A DNA stretch of 45,307 bases, taken from the NCBI GenBank assembly GCA_001831095.1, contig MIDP01000001.1, positions 1-45,307 of the forward strand. The letters run 5' to 3'. The number at the start of each line of letters is the position of its first letter. The stretch's first letter is position 1. Source of the stretch: Verrucomicrobia bacterium GWF2_51_19 (GTDB lineage: Bacteria > Verrucomicrobiota > Verrucomicrobiia > Opitutales > UBA12508). A program made the position numbers and the translations under genes. Below are positions 1-41,181 of this stretch, one piece after another. The notes beneath the pieces are model-generated. The model was not told the origin of the DNA and did no database searches. It worked only from the letters and a program-made list of their open reading frames with translations.

Positions 1-97
1 GGCGTTCTCGTCGTTCGGGCTAAGTCACCTACCTTAAAGTAGGCTCCTGTCGCCCTCGCTCCTCGGGCCTTGCTATAGAGCCATTTGACATCGGTCG
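1..97 (-). repeat. family A palindromic element, copy A1 (cut by window edge)
   Basis: The minus strand carries core GGAG-cctac-tttaag-gtagg-TGA. The arm agccatttgacatcggtcg ends at 97, directly against the stop codon at 98..100. Confidence 0.9.
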
Positions 98-1279
98 TTA
101 ATCCGTACAGAGCTGATCCAAATACCGCTGGAGGCCCACAACTTGGATGTCGTGTGCCAGAGGGAAAGTGTCTGATCCAGGAATAATCACAATGAGCGAA
201 TCTAGCTTTAACGCTTCTTTGGCGATTTTCATAGATGGGGTGATTTTGGGTGTTGACGAAAACTTGATTTCAAAACCGAGCCGTTGATCTTTCTGTATAA
301 GTAAGTCCAATTCTGCGCCGCTATGCGTTCCCCAAAAGTAACAATCTTCACTGTCGGCTTCATGGGCCCGAAGGATCTCTTCTATGGCAAGCCCTTCCCA
401 GAACAGGCCGAGCTTGGGGTGCCCCCATAAGTTTTCCTTCGTGCTGATGCCCGTGAAAATGTTTAACAGACCGGTGTCGCGGAAATAGACCTTGGGCGCT
501 TTTATTTGACGTTTGCTGATATTGTGATCGTAAAAGGCCTTCAGTTGGCGGACCATAAAAGTGTCGGTGAGTAGGTCTAAATAATGCCGCATCGTTGTGT
601 CTGAAAACCCGAGCGATCGACCGATTTCAGAGGCATTGAAGGTCGACGCATGATAGTGAGCGAGCATTGTCCAGAAGCGTCTCAGTGTTGCAGCTGGTAC
701 TTGGAGGCCCATAAGCGGGATGTCTCGTTCCAGGTATGTTTTGACAAACTCCTTACGCCAGTCCAAGCTTTCTTCCAGGCTATGGCTGAGGAAAGACCGT
801 GGATACCCGCCTCGCAGCCACAAAGTGTCTAAATCTTTTGTTTCCGTATAGCCAAAGGGCGTCAACTCCACGTAGGCAATCCTTCCGGCTAAGGTCTCCG
901 ATGTCTGTTTTAACAAGGTTTGCGAAGCACTGCCCAAGATTAGGTACCGTTGCTTGTCTTTTGTGTCGACCAAGAACCGCAAAAGAGGGAAGAGTTCTGG
1001 TTTTCGCTGAATTTCGTCGATGACGATGAGCCCCTCTAAATCTTGTAATGCCAATTTTGGATCGTCCAACCTAGCTAACGCGGTCGGATCTTCGAGATCA
1101 AAGTAGTGAACCTGGCTCTTGATATCGCTCAAATACATCTTGGCCAATGTCGTCTTGCCGCATTGCCTAGGACCGAGTAGAGCCACAACAGGGTGTGTTT
1201 TAAAGAGACGCTGTACTCGTCTGATTTTTCCTTGTCTTAAGAGTGGCCTGCTGTTGGGCCTTGAAAATTCGGTTTCCAT
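98..1279 (-). CDS. AAA+ ATPase of AAA_14/DUF4143 type with C-terminal nuclease-like D..ExK motif (paralog 1 of 4)
   Basis: ORF 98..1348. Walker A GPRQCGKTT, Walker B-like LIVIDEIQ, TYLERDI segment, C-terminal ELDLL-x-FEIK. Start moved to ATG at 1279 (METEFS...), which leaves a family-typical N-terminus. Confidence 0.85.
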   Translation of the reverse strand: METEFSRPNSRPLLRQGKIRRVQRLFKTHPVVALLGPRQCGKTTLAKMYLSDIKSQVHYFDLEDPTALARLDDPKLALQDLEGLIVIDEIQRKPELFPLLRFLVDTKDKQRYLILGSASQTLLKQTSETLAGRIAYVELTPFGYTETKDLDTLWLRGGYPRSFLSHSLEESLDWRKEFVKTYLERDIPLMGLQVPAATLRRFWTMLAHYHASTFNASEIGRSLGFSDTTMRHYLDLLTDTFMVRQLKAFYDHNISKRQIKAPKVYFRDTGLLNIFTGISTKENLWGHPKLGLFWEGLAIEEILRAHEADSEDCYFWGTHSGAELDLLIQKDQRLGFEIKFSSTPKITPSMKIAKEALKLDSLIVIIPGSDTFPLAHDIQVVGLQRYLDQLCTD

Positions 1280-1491
1280 GGCTGAAATTTCAACATACAC
1301 ATAGGAAAATGTCAATCCAGAAAGAAGTTGTGCCTTCGCAAGGCCCAATGCAAAATGCAGTCATCTGGCGACAAGCAAAAGTTTTGCAGATTTGAATTGC
1401 ATTTTGGCAAAAAACGGTATGCTTGTAAGGAGACTATCAAACCCCTACCCTATCATGCTTTTGTACTTTCAGGGGACAGCTTCTACGACTC

Positions 1492-2889
1492 ATGTTTTCC
1501 TGGCCATTAAATAAAAAAGACACCACCTCCATTCAATTGACCGATTTAAATCGCCATCAAGATATCGGAGCCAATTGCTTGTTGCTTAAAATGGGGCCGT
1601 TTACGGTCGTCGTCGACGCAGGCCTGCATCCAAAAAAGACAGGGCACAAGAGCACGCCAGACTTTTCTAAAATCGATGATTTTTCTGTCGACTACATCTG
1701 CATCACGCACTGTCACCTCGATCACATCGGTTCGCTGCCCATTTTGGCCCGCACGCAGCCACAGGCAAAGATCATTTTGACGTCGCCGTCCAAGGAAATT
1801 TTGCCCCGCATGCTGAACAACTCGCACAGCGTCATGTTGCGGCAGCGCGAGGAATTGGGCATCAACGAATACCCGCTGTACACGCGGACAGAAATCGAGT
1901 ACCTCGAACAACGCTATTTCCCTCTCTTGTTTCAAAAGCCACACGTGTTTGAAAAAAACGGCGAAAAACTCGAGATCACGCTCTATTCGGCTGGCCACAT
2001 TCTGGGCGCCTGCGGCTTTCTCTTTAAGTACAAGCACCGCTCACTCTTTGTCACAGGGGACGTCCTCTTTCGCAACCAAAAGACACTTAAAGGGGCTTCT
2101 TTCCCGAAAATCAAGGTCGACACGCTCGTCATGGAGACGACACGCGGCCTCACCGAGACGGCCGATGCGACGGCCGATGACGAAATGCGGCGCCTCGTCG
2201 ACGTCATTAACCACACGCTCGATCGCGGCGGATCTTGCCTGATTCCCGTGTTCGCGCTCGGTCGCATGCAAGAGATTCTCTTCATTCTCCACGAGGCTAG
2301 GCGTAACAAAAAACTCAAAAACGCTCCCATTTTCTGTTCGGGATTGGGCGTGTCATTGATCGAGGTGTTTGATGAAGTTTCGCGCAAGACGGGCCTCGTT
2401 AACTTTCATAAAAAGATCCTGCAGGACCTCAACGCCAAACCCTTACCCAAGGAGACTTACGAGGGAGGAACCTTACCTGATAAGCCATCTATCTACGTTG
2501 TGAGCAGCGGCATGGTCATCGAAAACACGCCCTCTTACATGGTTGCGGCGGCACTCCTCGGTTCGAAGCAAAACAGCATCTGCTTTGTCGGCTATTGTGA
2601 CCCGGAAACGCCCGGCGGAAAACTCCTCGTCTGCGAGCACAACGAGCCCTTTTTCTTCGAGACCATTCCAACGGAAATCCACGCCCGGGCCGCCATCGAG
2701 CGCTTTGAACTCAGTGGACATGCCAACCGCGAAGAGCTCCTCCAGCTCGTCTACGACATGGACCCCCGTACGGTCGTCCTGTACCACGGCGACGAAGAGG
2801 CCCGCGAATGGGTCTTCGATGAACTCGTCGACCAACACCCCAATTTGCAAGTCATCAACCCAACCCCAGGTGACCCAGTGGCGCTTTAA
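1492..2889 (+). CDS. MBL-fold beta-CASP family hydrolase (RNA/DNA-processing nuclease-like)
   Basis: 465-aa ORF with metallo-beta-lactamase motif HCHLDHIGSLP, and later SGH and YHGD motifs typical of beta-CASP/CPSF-like enzymes. Confidence 0.85.
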   Translation: MFSWPLNKKDTTSIQLTDLNRHQDIGANCLLLKMGPFTVVVDAGLHPKKTGHKSTPDFSKIDDFSVDYICITHCHLDHIGSLPILARTQPQAKIILTSPSKEILPRMLNNSHSVMLRQREELGINEYPLYTRTEIEYLEQRYFPLLFQKPHVFEKNGEKLEITLYSAGHILGACGFLFKYKHRSLFVTGDVLFRNQKTLKGASFPKIKVDTLVMETTRGLTETADATADDEMRRLVDVINHTLDRGGSCLIPVFALGRMQEILFILHEARRNKKLKNAPIFCSGLGVSLIEVFDEVSRKTGLVNFHKKILQDLNAKPLPKETYEGGTLPDKPSIYVVSSGMVIENTPSYMVAAALLGSKQNSICFVGYCDPETPGGKLLVCEHNEPFFFETIPTEIHARAAIERFELSGHANREELLQLVYDMDPRTVVLYHGDEEAREWVFDELVDQHPNLQVINPTPGDPVAL

Positions 2890-4040
2890 ACCCTCCACAG
2901 CGGCTGATTGGGGGTGAGGTTTTGCAAAAAGTGTTCGCAGGGCAGGTAGAGAATGTTGCCTTGTTTTAAAATCTCATGGCCTCGATAGAGAATGGCCAAT
3001 TGCGCCATTGGGTAGTCGTGGGCAAAGGCTTTGAGACCACGCTGGTCTTCAGGGCGGACTTTTTGCGTGCTCTTCACTTCAAAGGCCCATAAGCCGCTCT
3101 CTCCATAGATGACGAAATCCACCTCTAACTGGGCCCGTGTTTGCCAAAAATAGACCTTGTTGGGGACGTCGGTGTAGTCGCACCAGGCATGTAGGTGTTG
3201 AAAAATGAGCCCTTCTAGCGCGGCTCCTTCGATTTCTGAAACGCTGTCCAGCGGCCCAGTTGGCCGTATCGATCGGAAAATGCCTGTGTCGAAAAAATAA
3301 AACTTTTCCTGGTGTGATAAGAGCCGTTGCGCCCGTTTTGTAAAAACCGACAGGCGATGTCCAAGCAGTAGGTCTTCTAAAATAGAGACATAGGATTCGA
3401 CGCGTTTTCGTTCGACGGCGCAGTCCCGGGCGATGGATGCCAAATTCAAGGTGCTTCCATGTGAAAAAGAGATCGATTCCAAAAAGCGGCTGAAATCGCC
3501 AATATGGCGCGTCAAGCCCTCCATTTGAATTTCTTCGCGAAGGTAGAGACCTGCATAGGCGTTTCTTTTCTCAATGGGTGATACGGCGCCCCAGACGAGG
3601 GGTAACATGCCCCAGTTTAGGCCTTTTTCGATCGAAAAAGCTTTACCGAGTTCGGCTGCCATGAACGGATGCATGCGCTTATTGAGCGCCCGCCCGCCCA
3701 GCAGGTTCATGCCGCCTTGACGCAGTTTCCGCGGGCTCGAGCCCGTTAGCGCAAATTGCAGGGTCTTGTCTTTTTCGATCAGCAGATGGACAGCATTCAA
3801 AATCGTAGGCACCTTTTGCACCTCATCGATGATGAAGGTTTTTCTAGCAGTCCCCGCCTGCACTTCCAGCAGACGCTCGGGATGGCTCGCGTAGATCCGG
3901 AAGGTCGCTTCGTCCAGCAGGTCGATATAGACGGCATCAGCCATTTCCTTGCGACACCACAAAGACTTGCCTGTCCCGCGTGGACCCAATAGGAAAAAGC
4001 TGTCGGCTGGTTGTTTGAAAAGTCGCCTGATGTTGTTCAT
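2886..4040 (-). CDS. AAA+ ATPase of AAA_14/DUF4143 type with C-terminal D..ExK motif (paralog 2 of 4)
   Basis: C-terminal 384 aa of ORF 2886..4676, starting at ATG 4040 (MNNIRRLFKQP). Walker A GPRGTGKS, IIDEVQ, LYLREEI segment, EVDFV-x-FEVK. The part upstream of 4040 is antisense to mnmE and to a repeat array. Confidence 0.85.
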   Translation of the reverse strand: MNNIRRLFKQPADSFFLLGPRGTGKSLWCRKEMADAVYIDLLDEATFRIYASHPERLLEVQAGTARKTFIIDEVQKVPTILNAVHLLIEKDKTLQFALTGSSPRKLRQGGMNLLGGRALNKRMHPFMAAELGKAFSIEKGLNWGMLPLVWGAVSPIEKRNAYAGLYLREEIQMEGLTRHIGDFSRFLESISFSHGSTLNLASIARDCAVERKRVESYVSILEDLLLGHRLSVFTKRAQRLLSHQEKFYFFDTGIFRSIRPTGPLDSVSEIEGAALEGLIFQHLHAWCDYTDVPNKVYFWQTRAQLEVDFVIYGESGLWAFEVKSTQKVRPEDQRGLKAFAHDYPMAQLAILYRGHEILKQGNILYLPCEHFLQNLTPNQPLWRV

Positions 4041-4069
4041 GGTTTTGACATTCAATATGGCGAGACAAA

Positions 4070-4197
4070 CTCCATTTTGCAAGTCAAAACGGAGTTGATA
4101 TCTCCATTTTGCAATGCAATTTGGAGATCGAAACTCCATTTTGCAATGCAATTTGGAGTCGCAACCTCCATTTTGCAACAACCTCCACTTTTTTATG
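4070..4197 (+). repeat. tandem array, 4 units of exactly 32 bp, each starting CTCCATTTTGCAA
   Basis: The motif starts at 4070, 4102, 4134 and 4166. Units 2 and 3 are nearly identical imperfect palindromes (ctccattttgcaatgcaatttggag). The array lies in the divergent gap between ATPase paralog 2 and mnmE. Confidence 0.9.
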
Positions 4198-4265
4198 CTT
4201 TTGAGTGGCCAAGGTGGGCATTGTGTATTGTATTGAGAACTATGAAAAATGATGGAAAAGAACGC

Positions 4266-5630: not shown

Positions 5631-5656
5631 GATGAGGCATGAATAGCAACGACCCA

Positions 5657-5776
5657 AGATCGACTCAAAATGGCTCTATAGCAAGGCCCGAGGAGCGAGG
5701 GCGACAGGAGCCTACTGACGTAGGTGACTTAGCTCGAACGACGAGAACGCCGCTAGAGGCCATTTTGAGTCGATCT
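5657..5776 (+). repeat. family A palindromic element, copy A2
   Basis: Perfect 18-bp arms 5657..5674 / 5759..5776. Core GGAG-cctac-tgac-gtagg-TGA. Confidence 0.95.
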
Positions 5777-7603
5777 TCTTATGATGTGATTGTCTGTGGA
5801 GCAGGCCATGCCGGCTGCGAGGCTGCTCTGGCGGCTGCGCGCATGGGCGCTCGTACGCTCTTGCTTACGGGCAACCTCGATACAATCGCCCAAATGAGTT
5901 GCAATCCGGCCATCGGCGGTCAAGCCAAGGGCCACATCGTTCGCGAAGTCGACGCACTGGGCGGTGAAATGGCCGTCAATACCGACTTTACTGCCATTCA
6001 ATTTCGTTTACTGAATCGCTCAAAGGGCCTCGCCGTTCAGGCTCCGCGCGCGCAATGCGACAAAAAGGCCTATCAGTTTCGCATGAAGCAGACGCTAGAG
6101 ATGCAGCCCAATTTGCACGTCTTTCAGGCCGAAGTGACGGGCTTGATCCTGCGGGATGGTGCCGTTGCGGGTGTCGAGACGAACCTGGGTTGTGCCTTCA
6201 AGGGCAAGACGGTGATTTTGACAACGGGCACTTTTTTAAAGGGTATTATGTTTGTCGGCGATGCGACTGTCGAAGGTGGCCGCATGGGGGATTTTGCCGC
6301 AAAGAGGCTGTCGAAGTCGCTTTTGGACAGCGGTATTCAGCTGGAGCGTCTCAAGACGGGGACTCCGGCGCGCATATTGGGCCGCAGCATTGACTTTTCT
6401 GTCTGCGAGGAGCAGAAGTCTGATTCCGAGCCAACGCTGTTTGCGTTTTACGACACTCGCGAAGAGATGTTCCACGTGGAACAATTGGGTGAAAACAGGG
6501 TGGGGTGGGGGCCCAACACGCGTAGCACCTCCTGTTGGATGACGTATACCAATGATCAAACAGAGGCCGTTATTCAGGCCAATTTGCGCCGATCCGCCAT
6601 GTACGGTGGTAAGATCGAGGGAGTTGGCCCGCGTTACTGTCCGAGTATTGAAGACAAGATTGTTCGCTTCAGCGATAAGGAGCGCCACCGGCTGTTTCTC
6701 GAGCCAGAGGGCATTCATACCGACGAGTGGTATATCAACGGCCTCTCCACGAGTATGCCAATGGAGGTCCAGGAGGCCATTATCCGCACCATTCCTGGAC
6801 TCGAGCAGGCGATTATTACACGTCCAGCCTATGCCGTTGAGTACGATTACGCGCCGCCAACGCAATTGCAGCCCTCGCTGGAATCAAAGTCGATAGGGGG
6901 GCTCTTTTGCGCGGGTCAAATTAACGGAACTTCGGGTTACGAAGAGGCTGCCTGCCAGGGCCTCGTTGCGGGTGTCAATGCTGCTGCTAAATGCCTCGGG
7001 CTGTCGGAGCTCGTTATCGGTCGAGAAGAAGCCTATACGGGTGTCCTTATCGACGACCTCGTCACCAAGGGCACGCAAGAGCCTTACCGCATGTTCACCA
7101 GTCGCGCCGAATACCGCCTCCTTCTCAATCACAACAGCGCTGAACTCCGTTTGATCGACAAGGCCGCCCAGTACAATCTTTTGCCCGAAGCTCGCGTGAC
7201 CGCCATTCGACAAAAAAAGGCCGCCATCGAGCATTGGGTGAGTCGGTTTGAGGGCACGGGTCTCGACGCCCGCGGGACGCTCGCTGACGCCCTCCGTCGC
7301 AACCTTCAAGTCGAGCTCCCCTATGCATTCCAGGCTCTCTCGGGTGCCATTCGCGAGGAAGTTCTCTATCGCGTTCTCTACCGCGGTTACCTCGAAAAAG
7401 ACTTTGCCCACATTGCCAAAATGAAGGCGATTGACGCCGTCCGCATTCCATCCGACTTCAATTACGAAACACTCAAGGGCCTCCGCAACGAGAGCCTCCA
7501 AAAACTCAAGAAGATCCGGCCCCAAACCCTCGGCCAAGCCAGCCGAATCAGCGGCATCAACCCGGCCGACGTCAGCGTCCTTCTGGTCTATCTGCGGAAG
7601 TAG
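5765..7603 (+). CDS. mnmG: tRNA uridine 5-carboxymethylaminomethyl modification enzyme MnmG (GidA)
   Basis: YDVIVCGAGHAGCEAA FAD-binding N-terminus and full-length MnmG-like sequence. TTG 5765 is preceded by AGAGG. The ORF is also open from ATG 5639, but that extension is made of repeat element A2. Confidence 0.88.
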   Translation: MSRSSYDVIVCGAGHAGCEAALAAARMGARTLLLTGNLDTIAQMSCNPAIGGQAKGHIVREVDALGGEMAVNTDFTAIQFRLLNRSKGLAVQAPRAQCDKKAYQFRMKQTLEMQPNLHVFQAEVTGLILRDGAVAGVETNLGCAFKGKTVILTTGTFLKGIMFVGDATVEGGRMGDFAAKRLSKSLLDSGIQLERLKTGTPARILGRSIDFSVCEEQKSDSEPTLFAFYDTREEMFHVEQLGENRVGWGPNTRSTSCWMTYTNDQTEAVIQANLRRSAMYGGKIEGVGPRYCPSIEDKIVRFSDKERHRLFLEPEGIHTDEWYINGLSTSMPMEVQEAIIRTIPGLEQAIITRPAYAVEYDYAPPTQLQPSLESKSIGGLFCAGQINGTSGYEEAACQGLVAGVNAAAKCLGLSELVIGREEAYTGVLIDDLVTKGTQEPYRMFTSRAEYRLLLNHNSAELRLIDKAAQYNLLPEARVTAIRQKKAAIEHWVSRFEGTGLDARGTLADALRRNLQVELPYAFQALSGAIREEVLYRVLYRGYLEKDFAHIAKMKAIDAVRIPSDFNYETLKGLRNESLQKLKKIRPQTLGQASRISGINPADVSVLLVYLRK

Positions 7604-7633
7604 GGTGGGTGTCAGTTGTTCTGTGTGCCATGG

Positions 7634-8461: not shown

Positions 8462-8512
8462 AGGGTTCCTTCGATCTGGTGCTTGACAAAGGTTTTGTTA
8501 ATAAGTGTGGGC

Positions 8513-8947: not shown

Positions 8948-9068
8948 AGTAAATAAAATGCTTAAAAAGATTTTATAAAAAGTCAAGCAAAAACGGCAAT
9001 TTGACAACAAAATCTGTAGTGATAGAGGAAATCATTCACCAAATGGAGCTGCCAATTATTAGATGGTA

Positions 9069-14805: not shown

Positions 14806-14820
14806 AATCTAAATGAGTTT

Positions 14821-14942
14821 AAGATCGATGCAAAATGGTCTATAGCGACGTTCTCGTCGTTCGGGCTAGGTCACGTACCAACGTACGCTCCCGTTGCCCT
14901 CGCTCCTCGGGCCTGGCTCTAGAGCCATTTTACATCGATCTT
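14821..14942 (-). repeat. family A palindromic element, copy A3
   Basis: Arms 14821..14838 / 14925..14942 pair at 17 of 18. The core on the minus strand is GGAG-cgtac-gttg-gtacg-TGA. Confidence 0.95.
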
Positions 14943-15026
14943 GGATTCGTTGAATAGAAAGGATTAAAAGATGCTTTTTTGAAAAAATTTCGCTTTTTGA
15001 TATAAACCCTTCATTTTGCATCGGTC
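14943..15026 (+). repeat. family D repeat, copy D1
   Basis: About 80 nt that align with 40095..40175. Contains the AT hairpin aaaagatgcttttttgaaaa and ends in cattttgcatcggtc. Confidence 0.8.
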
Positions 15027-15095
15027 TTTTTAGAATTATACAAAAAAGCGTTTTCATGCAATTTTTATTTCTATTGGCGTGTATTCATAACCTAC

Positions 15096-15222
15096 AGACA
15101 GCATGCAAAATAGATGCAAAAATGTGGCTTTGCGCGAGCATGCATGCCGTAGCGTACATAGAGGTACGTGAGGCAGGCCGCGGAGCGCGAAACGCATTTT
15201 GGCGCTATTTTGCATGCTGTCT
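15096..15222 (+). repeat. family B palindromic element, copy B1
   Basis: Perfect 18-bp arms 15096..15113 / 15205..15222. Core GTAG-cgtac-atagag-gtacg-TGA. The right arm touches the mutL stop codon. Confidence 0.95.
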
Positions 15223-16916: not shown

Positions 16917-16921
16917 AACCC

Positions 16922-17051
16922 AAAAGACGTGCGCAAAATAGCGCAAAAATGCATTTCGCGCTCCGCCGACTGCCTCACGTACCATCGTACGCTACGGCAG
17001 ATCGTACTCGCGCAAAGCCACATTTTTGCATCTATTTTTCACACGTCTTTT
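16922..17051 (-). repeat. family B palindromic element, copy B2
   Basis: Arms 16922..16941 / 17032..17051 pair at 18 of 20. The minus-strand core is GTAG-cgtac-gatg-gtacg-TGA. Sits 5 nt upstream of the mutL start. Confidence 0.95.
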
Positions 17052-17166
17052 TGATTATTAAGGCGTTATGTGTTTCTACGCGAATAAAAAATTTAATTTT
17101 TCATGCCCTTGCGCCTCGGGCCTAGATTCTGCAACGCTCTTTCCACTGAGTTTTCATTACATGTTT

Positions 17167-18282: not shown

Positions 18283-18286
18283 AACA

Positions 18287-18533
18287 AAGGTCATTGCAAA
18301 AGTGTCTCTAGCGGCGTTCTTCCCGCAGGCAAATGGGGCAAAAAGTTCGTTATCCATCGTGATTCGCCTAGGTCACGCATTTCAATGCGCTCCCGTCGGC
18401 TCACACTCGGAAGCCTGTTTCTTGCTACATTTGCCTGCGGGACTGTCGTTCGGGCTAAGTCACGTACCAACGTACGCTCCCGTTGCCCTCGCTCCTCGGG
18501 CCTGGCTATAGGCGCATTTTTCAAAGGCCTTTT
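18287..18533 (-). repeat. composite element A4: family A shell carrying a nested family C element
   Basis: The family A sequence gcggcgttct is interrupted at 18320/18321 and resumes as ctgtcgttcgggctaagtcacgtac at 18443. The outer arms are degenerate. Confidence 0.9.
18321..18442 (-). repeat. family C element, copy C1 (nested in A4)
   Basis: Perfect 15-bp arms tcccgcaggcaaatg / catttgcctgcggga. The minus-strand core is GGAG-cgcat-tgaa-atgcg-TGA. Confidence 0.95.
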
Positions 18534-18572
18534 CCTTTCTCGGAAAAATATACAGCATGGAAGCACAAAAAC

Positions 18573-18691
18573 CTCTGCAAAATGCCGTCAAAGCTTGGCT
18601 GTGCGTGGGCACGATCTGGCATAGCGTACATAGGCGTACGTGAGCCAATATGTGTAGCGCGCGAAACGAGCTTTCACGGTATTTTGCAGAG
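18573..18691 (+). repeat. family B palindromic element, copy B3
   Basis: Arms 18573..18588 / 18676..18691 pair at 15 of 16. Core ATAG-cgtac-ataggc-gtacg-TGA. Ends 4 nt from the histidine kinase stop codon. Confidence 0.95.
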
Positions 18692-18695
18692 ATCT

Positions 18696-21902: not shown

Positions 21903-21903
21903 A

Positions 21904-23752: not shown

Positions 23753-23819
23753 AGGAATACCAACGACATAAGACCGTTTATTATCGACCTTATGTTGTTT
23801 GTATTCATTTAGTTAGATC

Positions 23820-23948
23820 AAAGACCGACACAAAACACCGTCAAAGCTTGGCTTTGCGCGAGCACGATCTGCCGTAGCGTACATAGAAGTACGTGAGGCA
23901 GTCGGCGGAGCGCGAAACGAGCTTTCACGGTGTTTTGTGTCGGTCTTT
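23820..23948 (+). repeat. family B palindromic element, copy B4
   Basis: Perfect 22-bp arms aaagaccgacacaaaacaccgt / acggtgttttgtgtcggtcttt. Core GTAG-cgtac-atagaa-gtacg-TGA. A T-run follows the right arm. Confidence 0.95.
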
Positions 23949-27004: not shown

Positions 27005-27008
27005 ACGC

Positions 27009-28796
27009 ATGAAACTGCTCGCACTCTTCCTCGTGGCCTGCATCCAGTCGATTCTCTGGGGGCAGTACTCTCTAGGAACGATGCGGGCGATCGTGCTGTT
27101 GAAGGTCCTGGGCTACGGGTTTGCGCTCGTCGTTGCGCTCGCCTTCTTTCTGTTTTCGTGCGGTGCGCTGCGGGCCCTTATGGCACGCCACGCGGTGCGC
27201 TTATCGACGTTTTTTAGCCGAAAAACCCTGTTGACGGCGATCGTCATAATCGCCAGCTTTGTCTACATGCGGGTTCACGAGCCGACCGGCTACAAAGTCA
27301 TCATGGATGAGCCTCTGTTGGTCAACACATCCCTTTCGATGCATGAAATGAGGCAAGTAACGGTCATCTCGCAAGCACACTTTTTAGAAAACCGCTTTAT
27401 TCCGCTCCAAAACTACGTCGACAAGCGCCCGATAATGTTCCCTTTTTTCGTGTCGGTCCTGCACGACTTGACGGGCTATCGGCCGGAAAACGCGTTTTAT
27501 TTGAATGGTGGCCTGACGCTGGTCTTTCTTATGCTTTGTTACGCGCTGGGTGCGGTTCTGGCGGGTCGATGGGGCGGCATAGGCCTAGTTCTGTTGATGA
27601 CGGGTCTGCCTATTCTCATTCAGACGGCCAATGGGGCGGGCTTTGAGCTCTTTAGCCTCGTCATGCTGCTCGTGTGCATGCTCTGGGGCGTGGCGTACTT
27701 GAAGTATTTTGAGGACGTCTACCTGAACGCGCTCGTCTTCAGCGGCATTTTATTGTGCAATGTCCGCTATGAAAATCCGCTGTACGCGGGCTCGATCGCG
27801 CTGCTGGTGCTGGTTGCATGGCTGCAAAACAAGCGCCTCCATCTGACTTTGCCAAGCGCGCTGTCGCCCTTTCTCATGATTCCTTACCTCTGGGGGCATC
27901 GGGCGTTTGCCATCAATCCGTCCTTTTGGGAATGCCAGAAGGCGCCGATTCCGCAGCCCTTTGCCGTGGCCTTTTTTGAGAAAAACCTGGGCTTTGGGGG
28001 CAGTTTTCTCTTCGACACCTCCATCGCCGGTGGAAACTCTTTGCTGTTGAGCGCCGGCCTCTTTTGTTTTGTGATGCTGGTTGTCGTGGGTTGTACTCGT
28101 TGGCGGCGCTTGAATGATGAAACGCGCGTGTTGTGGCTGTTTAGTTTGGCGATCTTGGCCTATTCCGCCCTGCTTCTCTTCTACTACATCGACGTTAACA
28201 ACGTTATCGCGCGACGCCTGACGCTACCCCTGCACCTCGCCATCGGTTTTTCGATCGTCTGGATGGCTGCTAACTACAAAAATGGTGGCAAGGTTGTGAC
28301 GGCCATAGCCCTCGTTTACCTCGCTCTGGTGGCTCATCCGCGCATCGTCTCGAGGCAATACACTGAAACGCATTTTTCGGGCGAAAAGATCGACGCTCTC
28401 CTCAACTACGCCAAACAAGTTCCACAAAACGTTTTCTGGATCGCCGACTTCCACATCGCTCTCATAAACGAAAAGCGGCCAGCCATCTCGATTGAGCGCG
28501 CCAACAAGAACAAGGAAAAGGTGAAGAGCTTTCTGGCGTCGCCCATGCAGTGCTCCGTTTTGATTTTCGAAGACCTCAATTACGACGCCGACAAGCGCGC
28601 ATGGCTCGTCAATACATCTAAGCACGAGCCGCTCAACGAGGCCTTTGTTCGAGAAACGCTCTTTGAGAAAAACTTCTTTTTTGGCGGCAAAATACGCATC
28701 AGTAAGCTCGTCAGAGTCGACGCGGAGGACGCCGTTGACTGGAGCACCGTCAATGCGAAAAACTTTGTAGAGCAATGGACGAAAACGCTGCCATAG
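27009..28796 (+). CDS. polytopic membrane protein, possibly GT-C fold glycosyltransferase (ArnT/PMT-like)
   Basis: 595 aa with at least 10 hydrophobic segments. A DEP motif follows the early TM pair (YKVIMDEPLL). Soluble C-terminal about 150 aa. The family call is tentative. Confidence 0.45.
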   Translation: MKLLALFLVACIQSILWGQYSLGTMRAIVLLKVLGYGFALVVALAFFLFSCGALRALMARHAVRLSTFFSRKTLLTAIVIIASFVYMRVHEPTGYKVIMDEPLLVNTSLSMHEMRQVTVISQAHFLENRFIPLQNYVDKRPIMFPFFVSVLHDLTGYRPENAFYLNGGLTLVFLMLCYALGAVLAGRWGGIGLVLLMTGLPILIQTANGAGFELFSLVMLLVCMLWGVAYLKYFEDVYLNALVFSGILLCNVRYENPLYAGSIALLVLVAWLQNKRLHLTLPSALSPFLMIPYLWGHRAFAINPSFWECQKAPIPQPFAVAFFEKNLGFGGSFLFDTSIAGGNSLLLSAGLFCFVMLVVVGCTRWRRLNDETRVLWLFSLAILAYSALLLFYYIDVNNVIARRLTLPLHLAIGFSIVWMAANYKNGGKVVTAIALVYLALVAHPRIVSRQYTETHFSGEKIDALLNYAKQVPQNVFWIADFHIALINEKRPAISIERANKNKEKVKSFLASPMQCSVLIFEDLNYDADKRAWLVNTSKHEPLNEAFVRETLFEKNFFFGGKIRISKLVRVDAEDAVDWSTVNAKNFVEQWTKTLP

Positions 28797-32374: not shown

Positions 32375-33774
32375 ATAAAGAGTTACAGGGTATCGATCCA
32401 TCCGTTGGCAACTTCCATTACGACACGGCTTACGCCTTGGATGCCGGTGTAGGTCTCGATGAGAAGACGGTGCAATACATTTCTGCGGCCAAAGAAGAGG
32501 CGCCCTGGTTGCTCAATTTTCGCCAAAAAGCCCTAAAAGTCTTTCAATCGAAGTCGTTGCCGCTGCACTGGGCGCCGGCCGAAATCGCCAACATCGACTT
32601 TGCCAAACTCCGCTATTATTTGGCTAAAGGCGGCCCGGTGAGCCGTTCCTGGGACGACGTTCCTGAGGACGTCAAGCGGACCTTCGAGCGTTTGGGCGTG
32701 CCAGAAAAGGAACGGAAGTACTTGGCGGGCGTCGAGGCACAGTTTGACAGCGAATCCGCCTATTCTCGCATTCAAGAAAACTTGACCAAGCAAGGCGTGA
32801 TTTTTGTCGGCTCGACAGAGGGTCTCAAACACTTTCCCGACATTTTCCGGCCCTACTTTGGCCGCGTGATTCCAACGGACGACAACCTCTTTAGCGCGCT
32901 CAACAGTGCCGTTTTCAGCGGCGGCAGCTTCATCTACGTCCCACCCGGCGTCAAGGTCAAGCAACCCCTACAGGCCTATTTCCGCATCAACGCAGAGAAC
33001 TCTGGCCAGTTTGAGCGCACACTCATTATCGCCGATGAGGGCTCGGAGGTCACCTACATTGAAGGTTGCACCGCCCCCCGCTTCGACACCACTAACCTCC
33101 ATTCGGCCGTCGTTGAGCTCATCGCCAAAAAAGGGGCAAAGATTCAGTACATCACGGTCCAAAACTGGTCTACAAACGTCTACAACCTCGTCACCAAGCG
33201 CGCCGTTGCCGAGGAGGCTGCAGAAGTCCGCTGGATCGACTGCAATATAGGCTCCAAGCTGACTATGAAGTACCCTGGCGTTGTCCTCAAGGGTCGAAAA
33301 GCACGTGGTGAAGTGTTATCCATTGCACTGGCCAATACCGGCCAACACCAAGATACGGGTGCTAAAATGATCCACGTCGCCGAGGAAACGACGTCGAACA
33401 TCGTGGCGAAATCAATCTCCATCGGAAAAGGACGCTCATCCTACCGAGGCCTCGTGCACATTCCGAGCGGACTGAAGGGTTGCAAAAACAACACCCAATG
33501 CGACGCCCTCCTGATCAATACCGAAAGCCGCACTGACACCTATCCAGCCATTCGCGTCACCGGCGACCTCGCCAGCGTCCAGCACGAGGCCAGCGTCTCC
33601 AAGGTTAGCGAAGATCAAATCTTTTACATGCAGCAACGCGGCCTCACGGAAGCCGAAGCCATGAGTTTGAGCGTCAACGGCTTTGTCAACGAACTCGTCC
33701 GCGCCTTTCCCATGGAGTACAGCATTGAGCTTAAGCGACTTATCGACATCGAGATGACGGGCGCCATAGGGTAA
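32371..33774 (+). CDS. sufB: Fe-S cluster assembly scaffold SufB
   Basis: 467 aa with full-length SufB-like sequence. ATGA start/stop overlap with sufC. Confidence 0.9.
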
Positions 33775-34008
33775 GAATCGCGCACAATAATGCCAAAATG
33801 CGTTTTGCGCTCCGCCGACTGGCCACGGGGAAACCTTTTATAGAATAAAAGGCTTCCCCGACCCCCATCCCAAACACTTTTTAAGCGAAACACAAAAATG
33901 CATGCATTTTTATATTTCGCAAAGAAATGGGTGAAGCTGGAATGTCAGCTCTGTCTCTACGGGAGATCGTGCTCGCGCAAAGCCAGTGGCATCTATTTTG
34001 CGCGATTC
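33775..34008 (-). repeat. family B element, copy B5, with core replaced by an insertion of about 130 bp
   Basis: The left half (33775..33823) and right half (about 33955..34008) match B2/B6. The centre holds the hairpin 33826..33860 and the 18-bp palindrome aaaaatgcatgcattttt (33894..33911). Starts directly after the sufB stop. Confidence 0.85.
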
Positions 34009-34098
34009 TTTTTGAGGTAGTTGAAGACCTGCTGTTTTCCAACGGTGGATGTTTTTTGCTTGCAAAAGCTAGAAAGAATCATTTGCTTTTTCTTAAGT

Positions 34099-34185
34099 GC
34101 CTAGATGGCGGAATCGGCAGACGCGCCGGACTCAAAATCCGGTTCCCGCAAGGGAGTGAGGGTTCAACCCCCTCTCTAGGTACCA
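34099..34185 (+). tRNA. tRNA-Leu (anticodon CAA), class II with long variable arm, encoded CCA
   Basis: Hand fold: acceptor GCCTAGA/TCTAGGT (G1-U72 wobble), D stem GCG/CGC, anticodon stem CCGGA/TCCGG with loop CTCAAAA, variable arm CCC-GCAA-GGG, T arm GAGGG-TTCAACC-CCCTC, then A-CCA. Confidence 0.85.
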
Positions 34186-34186
34186 T

Positions 34187-34421
34187 AAGACTGATGCAAA
34201 ATAACGTGAAAAAGACCGATGATAAATGGTTTCTAGCGGCGTTCTCGTCGTTCGGGCTAAGTCACGTACCACATGTACGCTCCTGTCGCCCTCGCTCCTC
34301 GGGCCTGGCCAGACAACCATTTATCATCGGTCTTATGTCATTGGTATTCATTTAGTTAGATTAAAAAACGCTGTAAAATGGATGTAAAAATCTGGCTTTG
34401 ACATTATTTTGTATCAGTCTT
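34187..34421 (+). repeat. degenerate B-like shell enclosing copy A5
   Basis: Arms aagactgatgcaaaata (34187..34203) and tattttgtatcagtctt (34405..34421) pair at 16 of 17. The interior keeps a B-left fragment (34371..34400). Starts 1 nt after tRNA-Leu. Confidence 0.75.
34212..34334 (-). repeat. family A palindromic element, copy A5
   Basis: Perfect 20-bp arms 34212..34231 / 34315..34334. The minus-strand core is GGAG-cgtac-atgtg-gtacg-TGA. Confidence 0.95.
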
Positions 34422-34499
34422 ACCATTTTATAAGGCACAATTCACCGGTGTGTTGTTTTGTAAAGCAGAAAAAGGCGCTGAAAGACAAACTTCAGAAAG

Positions 34500-35447: not shown

Positions 35448-35460
35448 TGCGACACATAAT

Positions 35461-35534
35461 TGGCTGCCCGGCAAGGACTCGAACCTTGACAAACTGAGTC
35501 AGAGTCAGTTGTGCTACCATTACACCACCAGGCA
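35461..35534 (-). tRNA. tRNA-Gln (anticodon CUG), encoded CCA
   Basis: Hand fold of the reverse complement: acceptor TGCCTGG/CCGGGCA (the U1-A72 pair typical of bacterial tRNA-Gln), anticodon stem ACTGA/TCAGT with loop CTCTGAC, T arm CAAGG-TTCGAGT-CCTTG, then G-CCA. 74 nt. Confidence 0.9.
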
Positions 35535-35536
35535 AT

Positions 35537-35780
35537 AAAATCGTTGCAAAATGTCCTCTAGCGGCGTTCTTCCCGAAGACAAATTGGGCAATAAGTTCGT
35601 TATCCTTCGTGATTCGCCTAGGTCACGCATTTCAATGCGCTCCCGTTGGCTCACACTCGGACGCCTGCTTCTTGCCCCATTTGTCTTCGGGACTGTCGTT
35701 CGGGCTAGGTCACGTACCAACGTACGTTCCCGTCGCCCTCGTTCCTCGGGCCTTGCTATAAGCTATTTTCCAACGATTTT
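35537..35780 (-). repeat. composite element A6: family A shell carrying a nested family C element
   Basis: Same architecture and same interruption point as A4. Arms 35537..35553 / 35764..35780 pair at 15 of 17. The A core is GGAA-cgtac-gttg-gtacg-TGA. Begins 2 nt from the tRNA-Gln 5' end. Confidence 0.9.
35571..35692 (-). repeat. family C element, copy C2 (nested in A6)
   Basis: Perfect 14-bp arms tcccgaagacaaat / atttgtcttcggga. Core identical to C1. Confidence 0.95.
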
Positions 35781-35917
35781 GCAGATCTTATGGTGTTTGA
35801 AAAAACAAGAACTAGAGCTGTTTGGCAATCTTTTTTTCATTGCAAATTTTGCTTTCGATCGAAAATATGTTTTGCACGACGGGTCCTTTTGAAGGCAGTA
35901 CAAAAATTTTATGCGAC

Positions 35918-36757: not shown

Positions 36758-36787
36758 CGTGAATAGTTTTAATTCATGACGTGAATA
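36750..36787 (+). repeat. 16-bp direct repeat ATTCATGACGTGAATA x2 (period 22 bp)
   Basis: Copies at 36750..36765 and 36772..36787. Copy 1 spans the tatD stop codon and copy 2 spans the GTG start of ATPase paralog 3. Each copy has internal dyad symmetry, attca-tgacg-tgaat. Confidence 0.85.
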
Positions 36788-38010
36788 AAATAATCCCACG
36801 GTGGACGGAGCCTTTGCTGGAAAAGGCTTTAAGCACAATGCCGGTTGTCGTTATCAGCGGAGCTCGGCAGACGGGCAAAACAACACTGGTAAAGAAGGCA
36901 AAAAGTTGCCTCAAGCGAAAGTTTCTCTCTTTTGACGATTTGGATGTCTTAGATCAGGCGAAACGGTCGCCAGACTCATTATTGAATGAGCTTCCTGTAA
37001 CGATTGACGAGGTGCAGCGGTATCCCGATTTTTTATTGAGTGTAAAAAAGAAAGTCGATGATCAACGCAACCCCGGGATGATTTTGTTAACGGGGTCTGC
37101 CAATTTAGCTCTGATGCGAGGAGTCAGTGAAAGTCTAGCGGGTCGAGCGCTCTATGTCGAGCAAGCTCCCTTTTGTGCGGCAGAATGGTTTGGCCGAACA
37201 GCAGTATTCACGTTAATCGATGCTTTTTTCGACAAAACAATGCCGCTCGTGGCTCGGAATGATGCCCAAACGTCTTGGGAATCGTCCTTTTTGTCTGGCG
37301 GTTATCCTTCCGTCATGCAGCTGCAGTCGCCTGAAGAGCGCAGTTTGTGGCATTCTGGGTATATCAAGACTTACTTAGAGCGCGATCTCAGAATGTTGGG
37401 TGAAATCAGCAGCATTATTGATTTCCAGAGGCTGATGCGAATGGCGGCGTTGCGCACGGCGAGACTCTTAAATCAGTCTGAGTTGGCCAGGGACGCAGGC
37501 CTTTCGCAATCAACGTGTCATCGTTATCTCAATCTTTTAGAAACGGGTTATCAAATTTCAAGGATGCATAACTTGACGTTGAATAGAGCCAAAGGGTTGG
37601 TGAAGAGCGCGAAATTGATGTGGTCCGATTCTGGTATTTGTGCGAACCTCGCCCATATGTACAACGAAGAGGATGTGCGTGGTCGGGCGGATGTCGGGTT
37701 TTGGTTGGAACAGCACGTTTTTCAGACTTTGCAGGCGTGGAAAGCCTCTCACTACAATGCATCCATTCATTACTGGCATCAAAGGCCGCACGAGGTCGAT
37801 TTCGTTTTGCAAAAGGACAATCGTCTCGTGGCCATTGAGATCAAACTGAGTTCGCAGATCCGCACGGATGACATAAAGGGCCTTCAAGCGTTTCAAGAAA
37901 CATTTAAGCGTCATTTTGCCGTAACGCGGGGCATTGTTATTTACAGCGGCAAGGACATGAAGGACTTAGGCAATGATATGTTGGCCGTTCCCATCCAATC
38001 TTTAACATAA
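36781..38010 (+). CDS. AAA+ ATPase of AAA_14/DUF4143 type with C-terminal D..ExK motif (paralog 3 of 4)
   Basis: GTG start. Walker A GARQTGKTT, TIDEVQ, TYLERDL segment, EVDFV-x-IEIK. Confidence 0.85.
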   Translation: MNKIIPRWTEPLLEKALSTMPVVVISGARQTGKTTLVKKAKSCLKRKFLSFDDLDVLDQAKRSPDSLLNELPVTIDEVQRYPDFLLSVKKKVDDQRNPGMILLTGSANLALMRGVSESLAGRALYVEQAPFCAAEWFGRTAVFTLIDAFFDKTMPLVARNDAQTSWESSFLSGGYPSVMQLQSPEERSLWHSGYIKTYLERDLRMLGEISSIIDFQRLMRMAALRTARLLNQSELARDAGLSQSTCHRYLNLLETGYQISRMHNLTLNRAKGLVKSAKLMWSDSGICANLAHMYNEEDVRGRADVGFWLEQHVFQTLQAWKASHYNASIHYWHQRPHEVDFVLQKDNRLVAIEIKLSSQIRTDDIKGLQAFQETFKRHFAVTRGIVIYSGKDMKDLGNDMLAVPIQSLT

Positions 38011-38048
38011 AACTCTTAGCTCGCTTTTTTAAAAAAAGGCTCCATGGT

Positions 38049-38168
38049 AAAGGCCGTTGAAAAATGTTCTATAGCAAGGCCCGAGGAATGAGGGCGACAG
38101 GAGCCTACTGACGTAGGTGACTTAGCCAGAACGCCGAGAACGCCGCTACCCATTTTTCAACGGCCTTT
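38049..38168 (+). repeat. family A palindromic element, copy A7
   Basis: Perfect 18-bp arms 38049..38066 / 38151..38168. The core is identical to A2. The right arm runs into a 7-T tract, so it is terminator-like for ATPase paralog 3. Confidence 0.95.
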
Positions 38169-38178
38169 TTTTACAAAA

Positions 38179-39969: not shown

Positions 39970-40094
39970 GACCGAGTCAAAATAGCGCCAAAATGCGTTT
40001 TGCGCTCCGCTGACTGCCTCACGTACCTCTATGTACGCTACGGCATTCATGCTCGCGCAAAGCCACATTTTTGCATCTATTTTGCATCGGTCTT
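39968..40094 (-). repeat. family B palindromic element, copy B6
   Basis: Arms 39968..39985 / 40077..40094 pair at 16 of 18. The minus-strand core is GTAG-cgtac-atagag-gtacg-TGA. The left arm begins inside the lepA stop codon. Confidence 0.95.
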
Positions 40095-40175
40095 TGGCTC
40101 GTTGAATAAAAAAGTTTCAAAAGATGCTTTTTTGAAAATGTCGCTTTTTACATAAACATTCATTTTGCATCCGCC
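40095..40175 (+). repeat. family D repeat, copy D2
   Basis: Aligns with 14943..15026. Ends directly against the methyltransferase stop codon at 40176. Confidence 0.8.
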
Positions 40176-40814
40176 TCATTCTGCAGTCTTTTTGACGTAA
40201 AGTTGATACAGCGGGAGGCGTAAAATTTTGATTTTTTGACAGTAAATCGTTGTAAAGGCGTCAATAGCGCTTTTGGGGCAAAGCACGGGATCGATATAGG
40301 AAGTATCTTTCGTCTGCCATAAATAGTCGTCAAAAGCCATCACTCCACCCACTTTTAGCAAGCGAAATGCCAGTACGGTATCGAACAAAACATCGGAAGC
40401 GACGTGTGAGCCATCGATGTAAATCCAGTCGAAAGAGCCTGCCTGTCCCTCTGTCAACAGTTGGCAGAGTATTTTATCGCTGAACCCCTTATGTTTTTTT
40501 AGCGTTACTGGGTGTTTGGCAGAAGCTTGTGCTAGACGGACATTTTTGTCAAATCTCGCTTCTATCGGCTGAGTTTGGTTGTCCCAAGTATCAACGCAAT
40601 GCAATTCAATGGGCCGCTCTGAGGCTAACTTTTGCATGATGTAACACGCAGACGCTCCTTCATAAGAGCCGACTTCCATGAGTTTAGATGGGTTTACTTT
40701 GAGAAGCAATGTATCCCAGTTTTTTTTCGCTGCGCCATCAAACCAACTGTTTGTAAACTCAAACGCGGCGGCTGAAAGAGTGGTGACTTCTGATGAAGAA
40801 ATATCTAATTGCAT
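40176..40814 (-). CDS. class I SAM-dependent methyltransferase (Methyltransf_24-like)
   Basis: 212 aa. MEVGSYEGAS motif I-like, later FDWIYIDGSH and GGVMAFDDY. Visibly AT-richer than its neighbours. Confidence 0.65.
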   Translation of the reverse strand: MQLDISSSEVTTLSAAAFEFTNSWFDGAAKKNWDTLLLKVNPSKLMEVGSYEGASACYIMQKLASERPIELHCVDTWDNQTQPIEARFDKNVRLAQASAKHPVTLKKHKGFSDKILCQLLTEGQAGSFDWIYIDGSHVASDVLFDTVLAFRLLKVGGVMAFDDYLWQTKDTSYIDPVLCPKSAIDAFTTIYCQKIKILRLPLYQLYVKKTAE

Positions 40815-40863
40815 GATCTCATCATTTTAATTGCAACATCCCATTGTGCGCAACAACAAACTC

Positions 40864-40881
40864 GAGTTTCGCGCTCCGCCG
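40864..40881 (-). repeat. short fragment of family B
   Basis: gagtttcgcgctccgccg matches the gcatttcgcgctccgccg segment of B2/B5/B6. Confidence 0.5.
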
Positions 40882-41131
40882 TCCTGGAGGTTTTTTCAAA
40901 AATAAAATTTTTTATATTGACAGTGCTTTCGGTATCGATTCTGATGAAATTATCTTTTTAATCAAAAGCGCTTGATTAGGCGTTTTGAAAGCGCAAAAAA
41001 ATTTGCTGCAGGGGGACGGGACCACTTAAGTAGAGAAGAAATGTGAACGCCTACGTCACCCCCTGCAGCTCTTGGACTCCTGGGGAAGCCTTATACTGTG
41101 TATAGTCGGCTGTTTTCTCCAAATCTTAAAA

Positions 41132-41181
41132 AAAGATCGATGCAGAATAGCCCAACGACGTTCTTGTCGTTTTGGCTGAGG
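41132..41181 (-). repeat. truncated family A element (arm plus first about 30 nt, no core)
   Basis: aaagatcgatgcagaatagcccaacgacgttcttgtcgttttggctgagg aligns with the left end of A3 (aagatcgatgcaaaatggtctatagcgacgttctcgtcgttcgggctagg). It stops where the transporter remnant begins. Confidence 0.75.

Follow-up and report, generated by a model that had tools for sequence, protein, structure and literature searches.

Long intergenic hairpin repeats with a common core, nested and conserved in structure, in DNA of an uncultivated groundwater bacterium

Hairpin cores in intergenic DNA

The stretch analysed here (hereafter the window) comprises 45,307 nt of contig MIDP01000001.1, assigned to Verrucomicrobia bacterium GWF2_51_19, with a G+C content of 52%, and carries mnmE, mnmG, mutL, truA, lepA, genes for response regulators and histidine kinases and tRNA genes, among which lies a dense set of long hairpin repeats built on one conserved core. 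The DNA originates from a groundwater metagenome and an uncultivated organism, and is also found in ENA assembly ERZ28564009 (scaffold_971) and in NCBI assembly GCA_003447165.1 (contig DLZY01000067.1), the proteins of which carry the NCBI label "Candidatus Edwardsbacteria bacterium". A direct pattern scan of both strands returned 14 cores, 5 on the forward and 9 on the reverse strand (Table 1), each consisting of a tetranucleotide (GGAG in 8 of 14, GTAG in 4, GGAA and ATAG in 1 each), a stem (CGTAC in 9, CCTAC in 3, CGCAT in 2) enclosing a loop of 4–6 nt, and a TGA that follows in all 14. These figures reproduce in full the counts of an earlier note on this DNA, which had claimed a superfamily of modular palindromic elements of about 120–245 nt lying outside credible coding sequence.

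The number of cores is far above chance: 12 cores of the strict G[GT]AG form were observed against 0.005 expected, and 14 of the relaxed form against 0.14 (200 dinucleotide-preserving shuffles each). In unrelated DNA from metagenomes and genomes (629 kb) the strict pattern was found twice, in related groundwater metagenome contigs (43 kb) 13 times, and the left flank of the window contains two full elements and part of another, so the copies beyond the window are not negligible. After mending over-extended gene starts and setting aside spurious small open reading frames (ORFs), elements overlap coding sequence by 7 nt, in line with the intergenic position claimed earlier; starts were corrected via the conserved N-termini of MutL, LepA, response regulators, Obg, FabH, RecN and MurJ, using motifs that we take to be typical of these protein families. 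Altogether the elements make up 2.15 of the 5.05 kb of intergenic DNA in the window (43%) and are present in 13 of 24 intergenic regions. Coding potential is ruled out by stops in all frames and by loop lengths that differ by non-multiples of three, as the earlier note had held.

Architecture and families

Each core is the tip of a single long hairpin of 119–129 nt (about 245 nt in two composites), and folding z-scores lie between −5 and −12. When 14 copies of family A and 8 of family B, drawn from the window, its left flank and related contigs, are aligned, three layers can be seen in each element, namely an outer stem common to the families, a family-specific middle and a common apex. The outer stem (consensus AAGACCGnTGCAAAATGG ... 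CCATTTTGCAnCGGTCTT in both A and B) is the most variable layer between copies, yet remains complementary inside each copy, structure being kept over sequence. The middle of family A is almost invariant and does not pair with itself, forming purine-rich internal loops on either side of the core (AGGCCCGAGGAGCGAGGGCGACA, core, CTTAGCCCGAACGACGAGAACGC), that of family B is an almost perfect stem in which several G-U pairs are conserved, and that of family C is another module, related to A. At the apex, G[G/T]AG is followed by five Watson-Crick pairs and one G-U pair, the 4–6-nt loop and TGA; it is closed by the GA of the tetranucleotide facing the GA of TGA, and the last G of the tetranucleotide pairs with the T of TGA in every copy.

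A profile hidden Markov model of family A detects B elements and vice versa, which, with the common outer stem and apex, supports the term "superfamily" as used in the earlier note; the unit size and modular build given there are likewise borne out by the layered hairpins. The division proposed there into seven A, two C and five B cores was reproduced, except that the C cores are not free-standing: each belongs to a 122-nt hairpin nested in an A element. In addition to intact elements, the window contains a family B element without an intact core (B5), a short family A derivative and fragments of both families were likewise seen, the left flank (locus L126) holds a second, complete A element beside the one cut by the window start, and the spacers flanking the elements are repeated too. 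The overall arrangement is a mosaic, like that of bacterial interspersed mosaic elements (BIMEs).

Conserved fold and strand asymmetry

The pairing is kept across copies with frequent compensatory change. In family A, 97.8% of alignment cells are in standard pairs and 14 of 40 pairs show changes on both sides, values reached by none of 500 shuffles; the figures for family B are 97.3% and 20 of 50 pairs, and here too no shuffle out of 500 came up to them, apart from a single one on one of five measures. As a slide control, the 3' partners were shifted by 1–3 columns, which left only 29–47% of cells paired. Covariation in the core stem, which the earlier note had named as a check, was found both there (G-C 8, C-G 6; CGTAC/CCTAC) and over the whole hairpin; the pair just outside GA/GA, for example, is A-U 11 times (acaGGAG...TGActta) and G-C 3 times (acgGGAG...TGAccta). 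The hairpins are real conserved structures.

They are also asymmetric: in 23 of 24 full elements the G[G/T]AG...TGA strand folds more stably than the complementary strand, with mean differences of −4.9 kcal/mol (A), −13.4 (B) and −10.3 (composites). In family B, G-U pairs are retained at five positions of the alignment, where the other strand would have A-C mismatches. The asymmetry and the conserved G-U pairs together indicate that the functional form is a folded single strand, whether RNA or DNA.

This bears on the hypothesis that the elements are duplex DNA sites for a nucleoid-associated or regulatory protein, the target being the inverted half-sites TGCAAAATGG / CCATTTTGCA and the hairpin potential incidental. 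The best-conserved part of the outer stem is AAAATGG/CCATTTTG, the motif recurs as four tandem 32-bp units in the divergent promoter region at 4043–4170, and BIMEs are known to bind integration host factor (IHF) and gyrase (PMC2817692, PMC3733652). However, the 50 further compensated base pairs would be needless for duplex binding, an asymmetry based on G-T pairs is not predicted, and the half-sites lie 90 nt apart in the duplex, and we regard this explanation as very unlikely.

Nesting

Both C copies are 122-nt hairpins that possess an outer stem, a middle and a core (GGAGCGCATTGAAATGCGTGA) of their own and are nested inside a family A element, and the composites consequently hold two cores in the same orientation. 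The junction is at GAACGAC^GAGAAC in the 3' arm of A, where the fold leaves a loop unpaired, with GAACGAC on one side and (G)AGAACG on the other. The nested unit has no other occurrence in the data examined, and its two copies differ by compensatory stem changes (GAAGAC/GTCTTC versus GCAGGC/GCCTGC). Landing of units in unpaired loops would explain the nesting as well as the combination of a shared old outer stem with younger inner modules.

Placement and orientation relative to genes

Family A elements mostly lie close to gene starts and follow the direction of transcription, a feature absent from the earlier note. Among 18 A-type copies (8 from the window and its left flank, 10 from related contigs), 12 end 0–15 nt short of a start codon or the 5' end of a tRNA on the same strand, and in all 12 the downstream start is nearer than the upstream stop (25–187 nt away where measurable). 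The distances for mnmG, lepA, two response-regulator genes and tRNA-Gln are given in Table 1; the others are 1 nt (fabH-like), 2 nt (obg-like), 3 nt (recN-like), 5 nt (murJ-like), 15 nt (lipoprotein-like) and, for two genes truncated at locus ends, 0 and 4 nt. Between co-directional genes, seven A copies are sense and two antisense. Since the orientation of family A flips with gene direction inside one 45-kb stretch, it tracks transcription and not the replication strand.

Family B has no orientation preference. Two copies in sense orientation lie ahead of starts (about 5 nt from mutL, 41 nt from a dehydrogenase gene), and three antisense copies adjoin an upstream gene at its stop codon and face an A element head-to-head. 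One composite arrangement recurs five times (stop codon, antisense B, spacer TTACGAAAGGAAAG, sense A, start codon), once with a degenerate B. A run of at least five T follows six of about 20 elements, and scans for sigma-70 promoters and terminators showed no enrichment at the elements, the scanner being blind to 50-bp stems.

One explanation for this placement is that the elements are cis-acting structured RNAs spread by duplication, in which a hairpin 5' of the start would be cut by RNase III or would guard the 5' end, so setting leader and stability, and which in one subfamily would bring an upstream GAAAGG beside the AUG. It would account for the sense A-type copies next to starts and a tRNA 5' end, for the conserved G-U pairs, frequent compensatory changes and strand-specific fold, and for an inner module that is almost invariant in sequence, as a binding site would be; the T runs agree with it, as does the occurrence of TTACGAAAGGAAAG directly 5' of the hairpin base in five copies, with the AUG 3–5 nt after in four and 15 nt after in the fifth. 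On the other hand, family B lacks an orientation preference, some A copies are antisense or lie in convergent 3' regions, promoter and terminator signals are not enriched, the genes downstream have no function in common (mnmG, lepA, mutL, response regulators, obg, fabH, recN, murJ, tRNA-Gln), and the GAAAGG flank is part of a repeated spacer and may be a passenger. We consider this possible, if on the unlikely side.

Shine-Dalgarno-like motifs are present in about 5 of 29 genes, and with such motifs mostly missing, insertion beside an AUG would not part a ribosome-binding site from its start. An unlikely extension is that the elements are mobile 5'-leader modules, which would land in loops or just upstream of starts and join the translation-initiation region. 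The hairpin would then fold away, or be trimmed by a double-strand RNase, to leave a short U-rich leader, and in one subfamily the fold would bring the element-borne GAAAGG near the AUG, forming a split ribosome-binding site of the type seen in phage T4 gene 38; the mobilising enzyme might be other than a REP-associated tyrosine transposase (RAYT; REP, repetitive extragenic palindromic sequence). If true, this would be a repeat family spreading a ready-made expression signal in a bacterium mostly without Shine-Dalgarno sequences.

Table 1 Hairpin elements, their cores from the pattern scan and other features of the region. Positions refer to the window unless another locus is named.
Feature	Position	Strand	Core	Context
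Family A element, cut by window start	1..100	-	25-47, GGAGCCTACTTTAAGGTAGGTGA	Just downstream of AAA_14/DUF4143 gene (98-1279, -)
AAA_14/DUF4143 gene	98-1279	-
AAA_14/DUF4143 gene	2886-4040	-
Four tandem 32-nt mini-hairpins (TGCAAwTTGGAG-loop-CTCCATTTTGCA)	4043..4170	.		Outer-stem motif only; divergent region between AAA_14 gene and mnmE
Family A element	5656..5777	+	5707-5727	Between mnmE and mnmG; mnmG start is TTG 5762 (inside 3' arm) or GTG 5786 (8 nt past hairpin)
Family A element	14821..14942	-	14871-14891	Sense to neighbours; ends 15 nt before response-regulator/SpoIIE ATG (14805)
~85-nt AT-rich module	14943-15030
Family B element	15096..15222	+	15149-15171	Antisense; 3' end overlaps mutL stop by 1 nt; head-to-head with A 14821-14942
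Family B element	16922..17051	-	16975-16995	Sense; ends ~5 nt before real mutL ATG (MKIRVLADSVVNQIAAGEVVERP)
Composite, A with nested hairpin	18287..18531	-	A 18460-18480; C 18373-18393	Nested 122 nt at 18321-18442, in A 3' arm; ends 4 nt before ATG of response-regulator/histidine-kinase gene (MNEQHTILLVDDE)
Family B element	18573..18691	+	18621-18643 (ATAG...)	Antisense; ≤5 nt from PAS histidine kinase stop; head-to-head with composite 18287-18531
Outer-stem-only small hairpin, 30 nt	23766..23795	-		ACATAAGGTCG-ATAATAAA-CGGTCTTATGT, two G-T pairs; homologous to base and 5' flank of A 34212-34334
Family B element	23820..23948	+	23874-23896	Sense; between truA and 2-oxoacid dehydrogenase gene (ATG 41 nt downstream); T run after
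Gene for 595-aa protein	27009-28796	+		Directly upstream of and overlapping UvrD-helicase/PD-(D/E)XK gene
Degenerate family B element B5	33772..34011	-		Both arms kept; apical hairpin replaced right after GTAG by ~135 nt with other small hairpins
Family A element	34212..34334	-	34262-34283 (5-nt loop)	Antisense to neighbours; 26 nt from tRNA-Leu 3' end
Composite, A with nested hairpin	35537..35780	-	A 35710-35730 (GGAA...); C 35623-35643	Nested 122 nt at 35571-35692; ends 2 nt before tRNA-Gln 5' end (35534)
AAA_14/DUF4143 gene	36781-38010	+
Family A element	38049..38168	+	38100-38120	Between AAA_14/DUF4143 gene and lepA; ends 10 nt before lepA ATG; T run after
Family B element	39970..40095	-	40019-40041	Between converging lepA and methyltransferase genes
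~85-nt AT-rich module	40096-40176
Fragment, 3' half of family A element	41132..41182	-		nhmmer E = 2e-4
AAA_14/DUF4143 gene	43635-44852	-
~295-nt non-coding stretch	44921-45214			Upstream of AAA_14 gene
AAA_14/DUF4143 gene	L126 495-1643	-
AAA_14/DUF4143 gene	L126 3026-4261	+
AAA_14/DUF4143 gene	L126 4383-5558	+
~295-nt non-coding stretch	L094 350-643
~295-nt non-coding stretch	L040 1401-1689

Assembly, gene calls and neighbouring features

As the DNA comes from metagenome assembly, the number of element copies may be inexact, as may some junctions. In other assemblies of this locus, runs of N or short collapses fall exactly within hairpin elements (window positions 1–60, 5683, 14870 and 18469–18500, compared with loci L005, L126 and L128), and the NCBI contig terminates inside the element at the window start. 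The gaps indicate that these repeats break short-read assemblies. An assembly artefact as the source of the elements is nevertheless unlikely, because four independent assemblies agree outside the N gaps; presence/absence polymorphism was sought among the assemblies of this locus, and the differences were N gaps only.

Gene callers are misled as well. Annotated starts at 5639, 16985 and 18357 extend the N-termini of mnmG, mutL and the response-regulator kinase into elements, and four small ORFs of 51–142 aa (14866–15021, 18460–18699, 33927–34355, 35551–35892) were called wholly over elements or tRNA-Leu. The units at 4043–4170 each form a 12-bp mini-hairpin; ENA gene calls extend both flanking N-termini through this array, and NCBI calls leave it intergenic. 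For the annotation of metagenome-assembled genomes, such repeats therefore matter twice, through N gaps and through long N-termini and spurious ORFs.

The AT-rich module of about 85 nt (...TTCAACGA...AAAAGATGCTTTTTTGAAAA...CATTTTGCATC) lies 5' of one A element and of one B element, its two copies being 72% identical, and holds an extra half-site, CATTTTGCATCGGTCT.

Genes for AAA_14/DUF4143 ATPases (COG1373-like) are present at an unusually high density, as seven paralogues in about 54 kb scattered among housekeeping genes. They are 23–50% identical to each other, and one has 55–61% identical homologues in Gammaproteobacteria and Chlamydiae, a pattern that suggests repeated horizontal acquisition. 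The roughly 295-nt non-coding stretch is present three times at 87–88% identity, with an AT-rich promoter-like start and a small hairpin inside; it has no Rfam match and no compensatory changes among the three sequences, and could be a small RNA, a conserved leader or another repeat family. The 595-aa protein, whose gene adjoins the UvrD-helicase/PD-(D/E)XK (AddA-like) gene, has no Pfam match and may be a diverged AddB-type partner.

Searches for relatives and transposases

Searches of known families returned no match to the elements. In Rfam, only two tRNAs reached the gathering score over the whole window, and no element matched at E ≤ 10 in the region 14700–18800, which holds A, B and composite elements; the elements thus match no RNA family already described in Rfam, whereas a match would have undercut the earlier note, and a ribozyme, riboswitch or other known RNA was rejected on the same grounds. 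No similarity was found in PLSDB plasmids or GenBank phages and no copies in IMG/VR viral contigs, so phage, plasmid or viral origin was also rejected. The family A arm was absent from 185,579 GTDB representative genomes, with two chance matches only, and an 18-nt pattern (16 bases specified) gave at least 115 loci in JGI metagenomes, mostly by chance, with six true relatives among the loci listed. None of the known GTAG-family strings in the supplements of PMC3733652 matches the elements. Sigma-54-type and Bacteroidetes-type promoters were considered for CCATTTTGCA and rejected by eye, spacing or bases being unfit.

The claim that the window has no Y1 transposase gene was confirmed and extended: neither a Y1/HUH gene nor any other transposase was found in about 95 kb (window, flanks and related loci) by Pfam lists, phmmer and a scan for the HUH-Y motif, the phmmer probe being an approximate IS200 TnpA sequence. 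The closest MnmG homologues, among 5.8 billion proteins, are 67% identical, and the named ones belong to Opitutales and Puniceicoccaceae.

Interpretation

We consider it probable that the elements are lineage-specific, non-autonomous interspersed hairpin repeats, of the kind that comprises REP sequences, BIMEs, REPINs, enterobacterial repetitive intergenic consensus (ERIC) sequences and Correia elements, which spread as folded single strands and land in loops, with family A kept as transcribed leader or intercistronic hairpins. The data show the repetition, conserved structure, strand asymmetry, nesting, intergenic place and the bias in orientation and position; mobility, a mobilising enzyme, transcription and any effect on expression are inferred. 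New units would land in unpaired loops of existing hairpins and so give rise to nested and mosaic forms, and an enzyme encoded elsewhere in the genome would mobilise them, a RAYT-like HUH tyrosine nuclease being the obvious candidate. Most family A copies would be transcribed with the downstream gene as a self-contained leader or intercistronic hairpin ending 0–15 nt before the start, where it could be tolerated or could act as a terminator, processing site or stabiliser.

Several observations weigh against this explanation. No transposase is encoded in the 95 kb searched. No target-site duplications or conserved termini were found, no direct repeats flanking the copies, and no empty site could be recovered from a relative via MnmG, the nearest homologue being only 67% identical; with no duplications, termini or empty site, it is copy number and nesting that mobility has to be argued from. 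The near-invariant A inner module, set against the variable outer stem, could mean functional constraint and not recent spread. Full B copies are antisense to their neighbours in four of nine cases, with one more in a convergent region, a poor fit with a purely RNA-level role. Finally, the copies share ancestry, and the counts do not represent independent events; even so, given the slide control and how many distinct pair types occur, a chance origin is very unlikely. The interpretation in the earlier note is, as a whole, partly supported.

Within the world of REP sequences, BIMEs and miniature inverted-repeat transposable elements (MITEs), hairpins nested in hairpins, a near-invariant inner module that does not pair with itself, and very stable hairpins ending a few bases before starts and a tRNA are unusual. 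If the placement is functional, it bears on translation initiation beside strong structure without a Shine-Dalgarno sequence and on the rewiring of leaders by repeats.

Comparison with known repeat systems

The attC sites of integrons are imperfect palindromes of 60–140 nt placed before the next ORF, in which structure counts for more than sequence and the fold is strand-specific. The elements resemble them in filling the gap before the next ORF, in being kept by structure and in having one folding strand. An identity as integron attC sites was rejected: RYYYAAC/GTTRRRY core sites, an integrase and a cassette array are lacking, the ends are AAGACCG / CGGTCTT, and the neighbours are housekeeping genes in both orientations.

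ERIC sequences, also called intergenic repeat units (IRUs), and Correia elements (Neisseria miniature insertion sequences, NEMIS) are imperfect palindromes of 100–150 bp in transcribed intergenic DNA that form long RNA hairpins; they have size variants by internal insertion or deletion, effects on mRNA processing that depend on orientation, conserved termini and TA target duplications. Size, intergenic place, long hairpin fold and internal size variants are shared with the elements described here, whereas in the latter the outermost 8–10 bp are the most variable and are compensated within copies, there is no duplication, and there is no sequence similarity. A classical MITE was likewise rejected for want of conserved terminal inverted repeats and target-site duplications.

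REPINs, reportedly described by Bertels and Rainey in 2011, are long hairpins of roughly 100 nt scattered through intergenic DNA and are regarded as the unit that moves; a REPIN consists of two inverted REP sequences, one per arm. The elements are similarly long hairpins interspersed in intergenic DNA, but they have one core at the tip and arms without a copy of the core, which sets them apart from REPINs.

IS200/IS605 elements, with their subterminal hairpins, and their derivatives that lack a transposase, the palindrome-associated transposable elements (PATEs), offer a guide-like tetranucleotide 5' of a small hairpin and a strand-specific single-stranded DNA substrate (PMC8266576, PMC6006769), both of which have counterparts here. 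They differ in having two unlike end hairpins round a body in place of one symmetrical long hairpin, and the elements have no TnpA or TnpB nearby and no replication-strand orientation bias within the window.

The closest parallels are with GTAG REP sequences and BIMEs. A REP sequence is a stem-loop of 20–40 bp with an unpaired terminal tetranucleotide, GTAG or the variants GYAG, GYRG, GTRG, GTMG and GTGG, and classical REPs lie near the 3' end of the upstream ORF at a variable distance from the downstream ORF (PMC3733652). RAYT systems recognise, on single-stranded DNA, a tetranucleotide that stands 5' of a short hairpin; its last two positions matter most in assays, selecting the CT (or CA) cleavage site next to the REP, and REP stems of 5 bp exist (PMC8266576). 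The elements share with them a dense extragenic distribution of palindromes and, immediately 5' of a short hairpin, a tetranucleotide that ends in AG (PMC3733652, PMC8266576), along with complementary stem variants, G-T pairs, head-to-head and mosaic units, one folding strand and no target duplications, and the antisense family B copies do adjoin stop codons. They differ in their length of 120–245 nt, of which the REP-like part is one apical hairpin, in the majority tag GGAG, which is outside the reported variants (PMC3733652), and in family A, which adjoins the downstream start and is co-oriented with transcription whereas REPs adjoin the upstream stop.

These likenesses raise the more specific possibility of a REPtron, in which the apical G[G/T]AG hairpin would be a REP bound and cut as a single strand by a RAYT encoded elsewhere, the long hairpins being BIME- or REPIN-like; in a REPtron the genome holds a Y1/HUH RAYT gene, which the REPs usually flank. 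The tetranucleotide stands directly 5' of a hairpin of 5–6 bp and has AG at positions 3–4 in 13 of 14 cores, its second base varying, and CT follows every A and C core (TGAC[T/C]TAG); family B cores are followed by TGAGGCAG, without CT, some having CT 5–6 nt upstream. The well-folding single strand, tolerated G-T pairs and absence of target-site duplications fit, the head-to-head A-B pairs recall the alternating REPs of BIMEs, and the closest MnmG homologues belong to Opitutales, Opitutus terrae being reported as rich in GTAG REPs (PMC3733652). Against this stand the lack of a RAYT in about 95 kb, the GGAG majority tag beyond the reported degeneracy, a conserved unit of 120 nt as opposed to 20–40 nt with its core single and apical, and the fact that family A tracks gene direction within 45 kb and adjoins starts where classical REPs adjoin stops (PMC3733652). 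We find this rather doubtful in its full form; the weights we give to it and to the readings as structured RNA and as duplex sites belong to overlapping sub-hypotheses. The resemblance to the REP, RAYT and IS200/IS605 grammar proposed in the earlier note lies in the tetranucleotide 5' of a hairpin, its AG and the strand-specific fold; the common tag GGAG, the single apical core, the start-proximal placement and the orientation of family A along transcription depart from it, and a link to RAYTs is a plausible lead but not an established one. While the kind of repeat is already known, the family is new, and it adds a well-defined structured repeat family from a barely sampled lineage to the REPs, BIMEs and MITEs.

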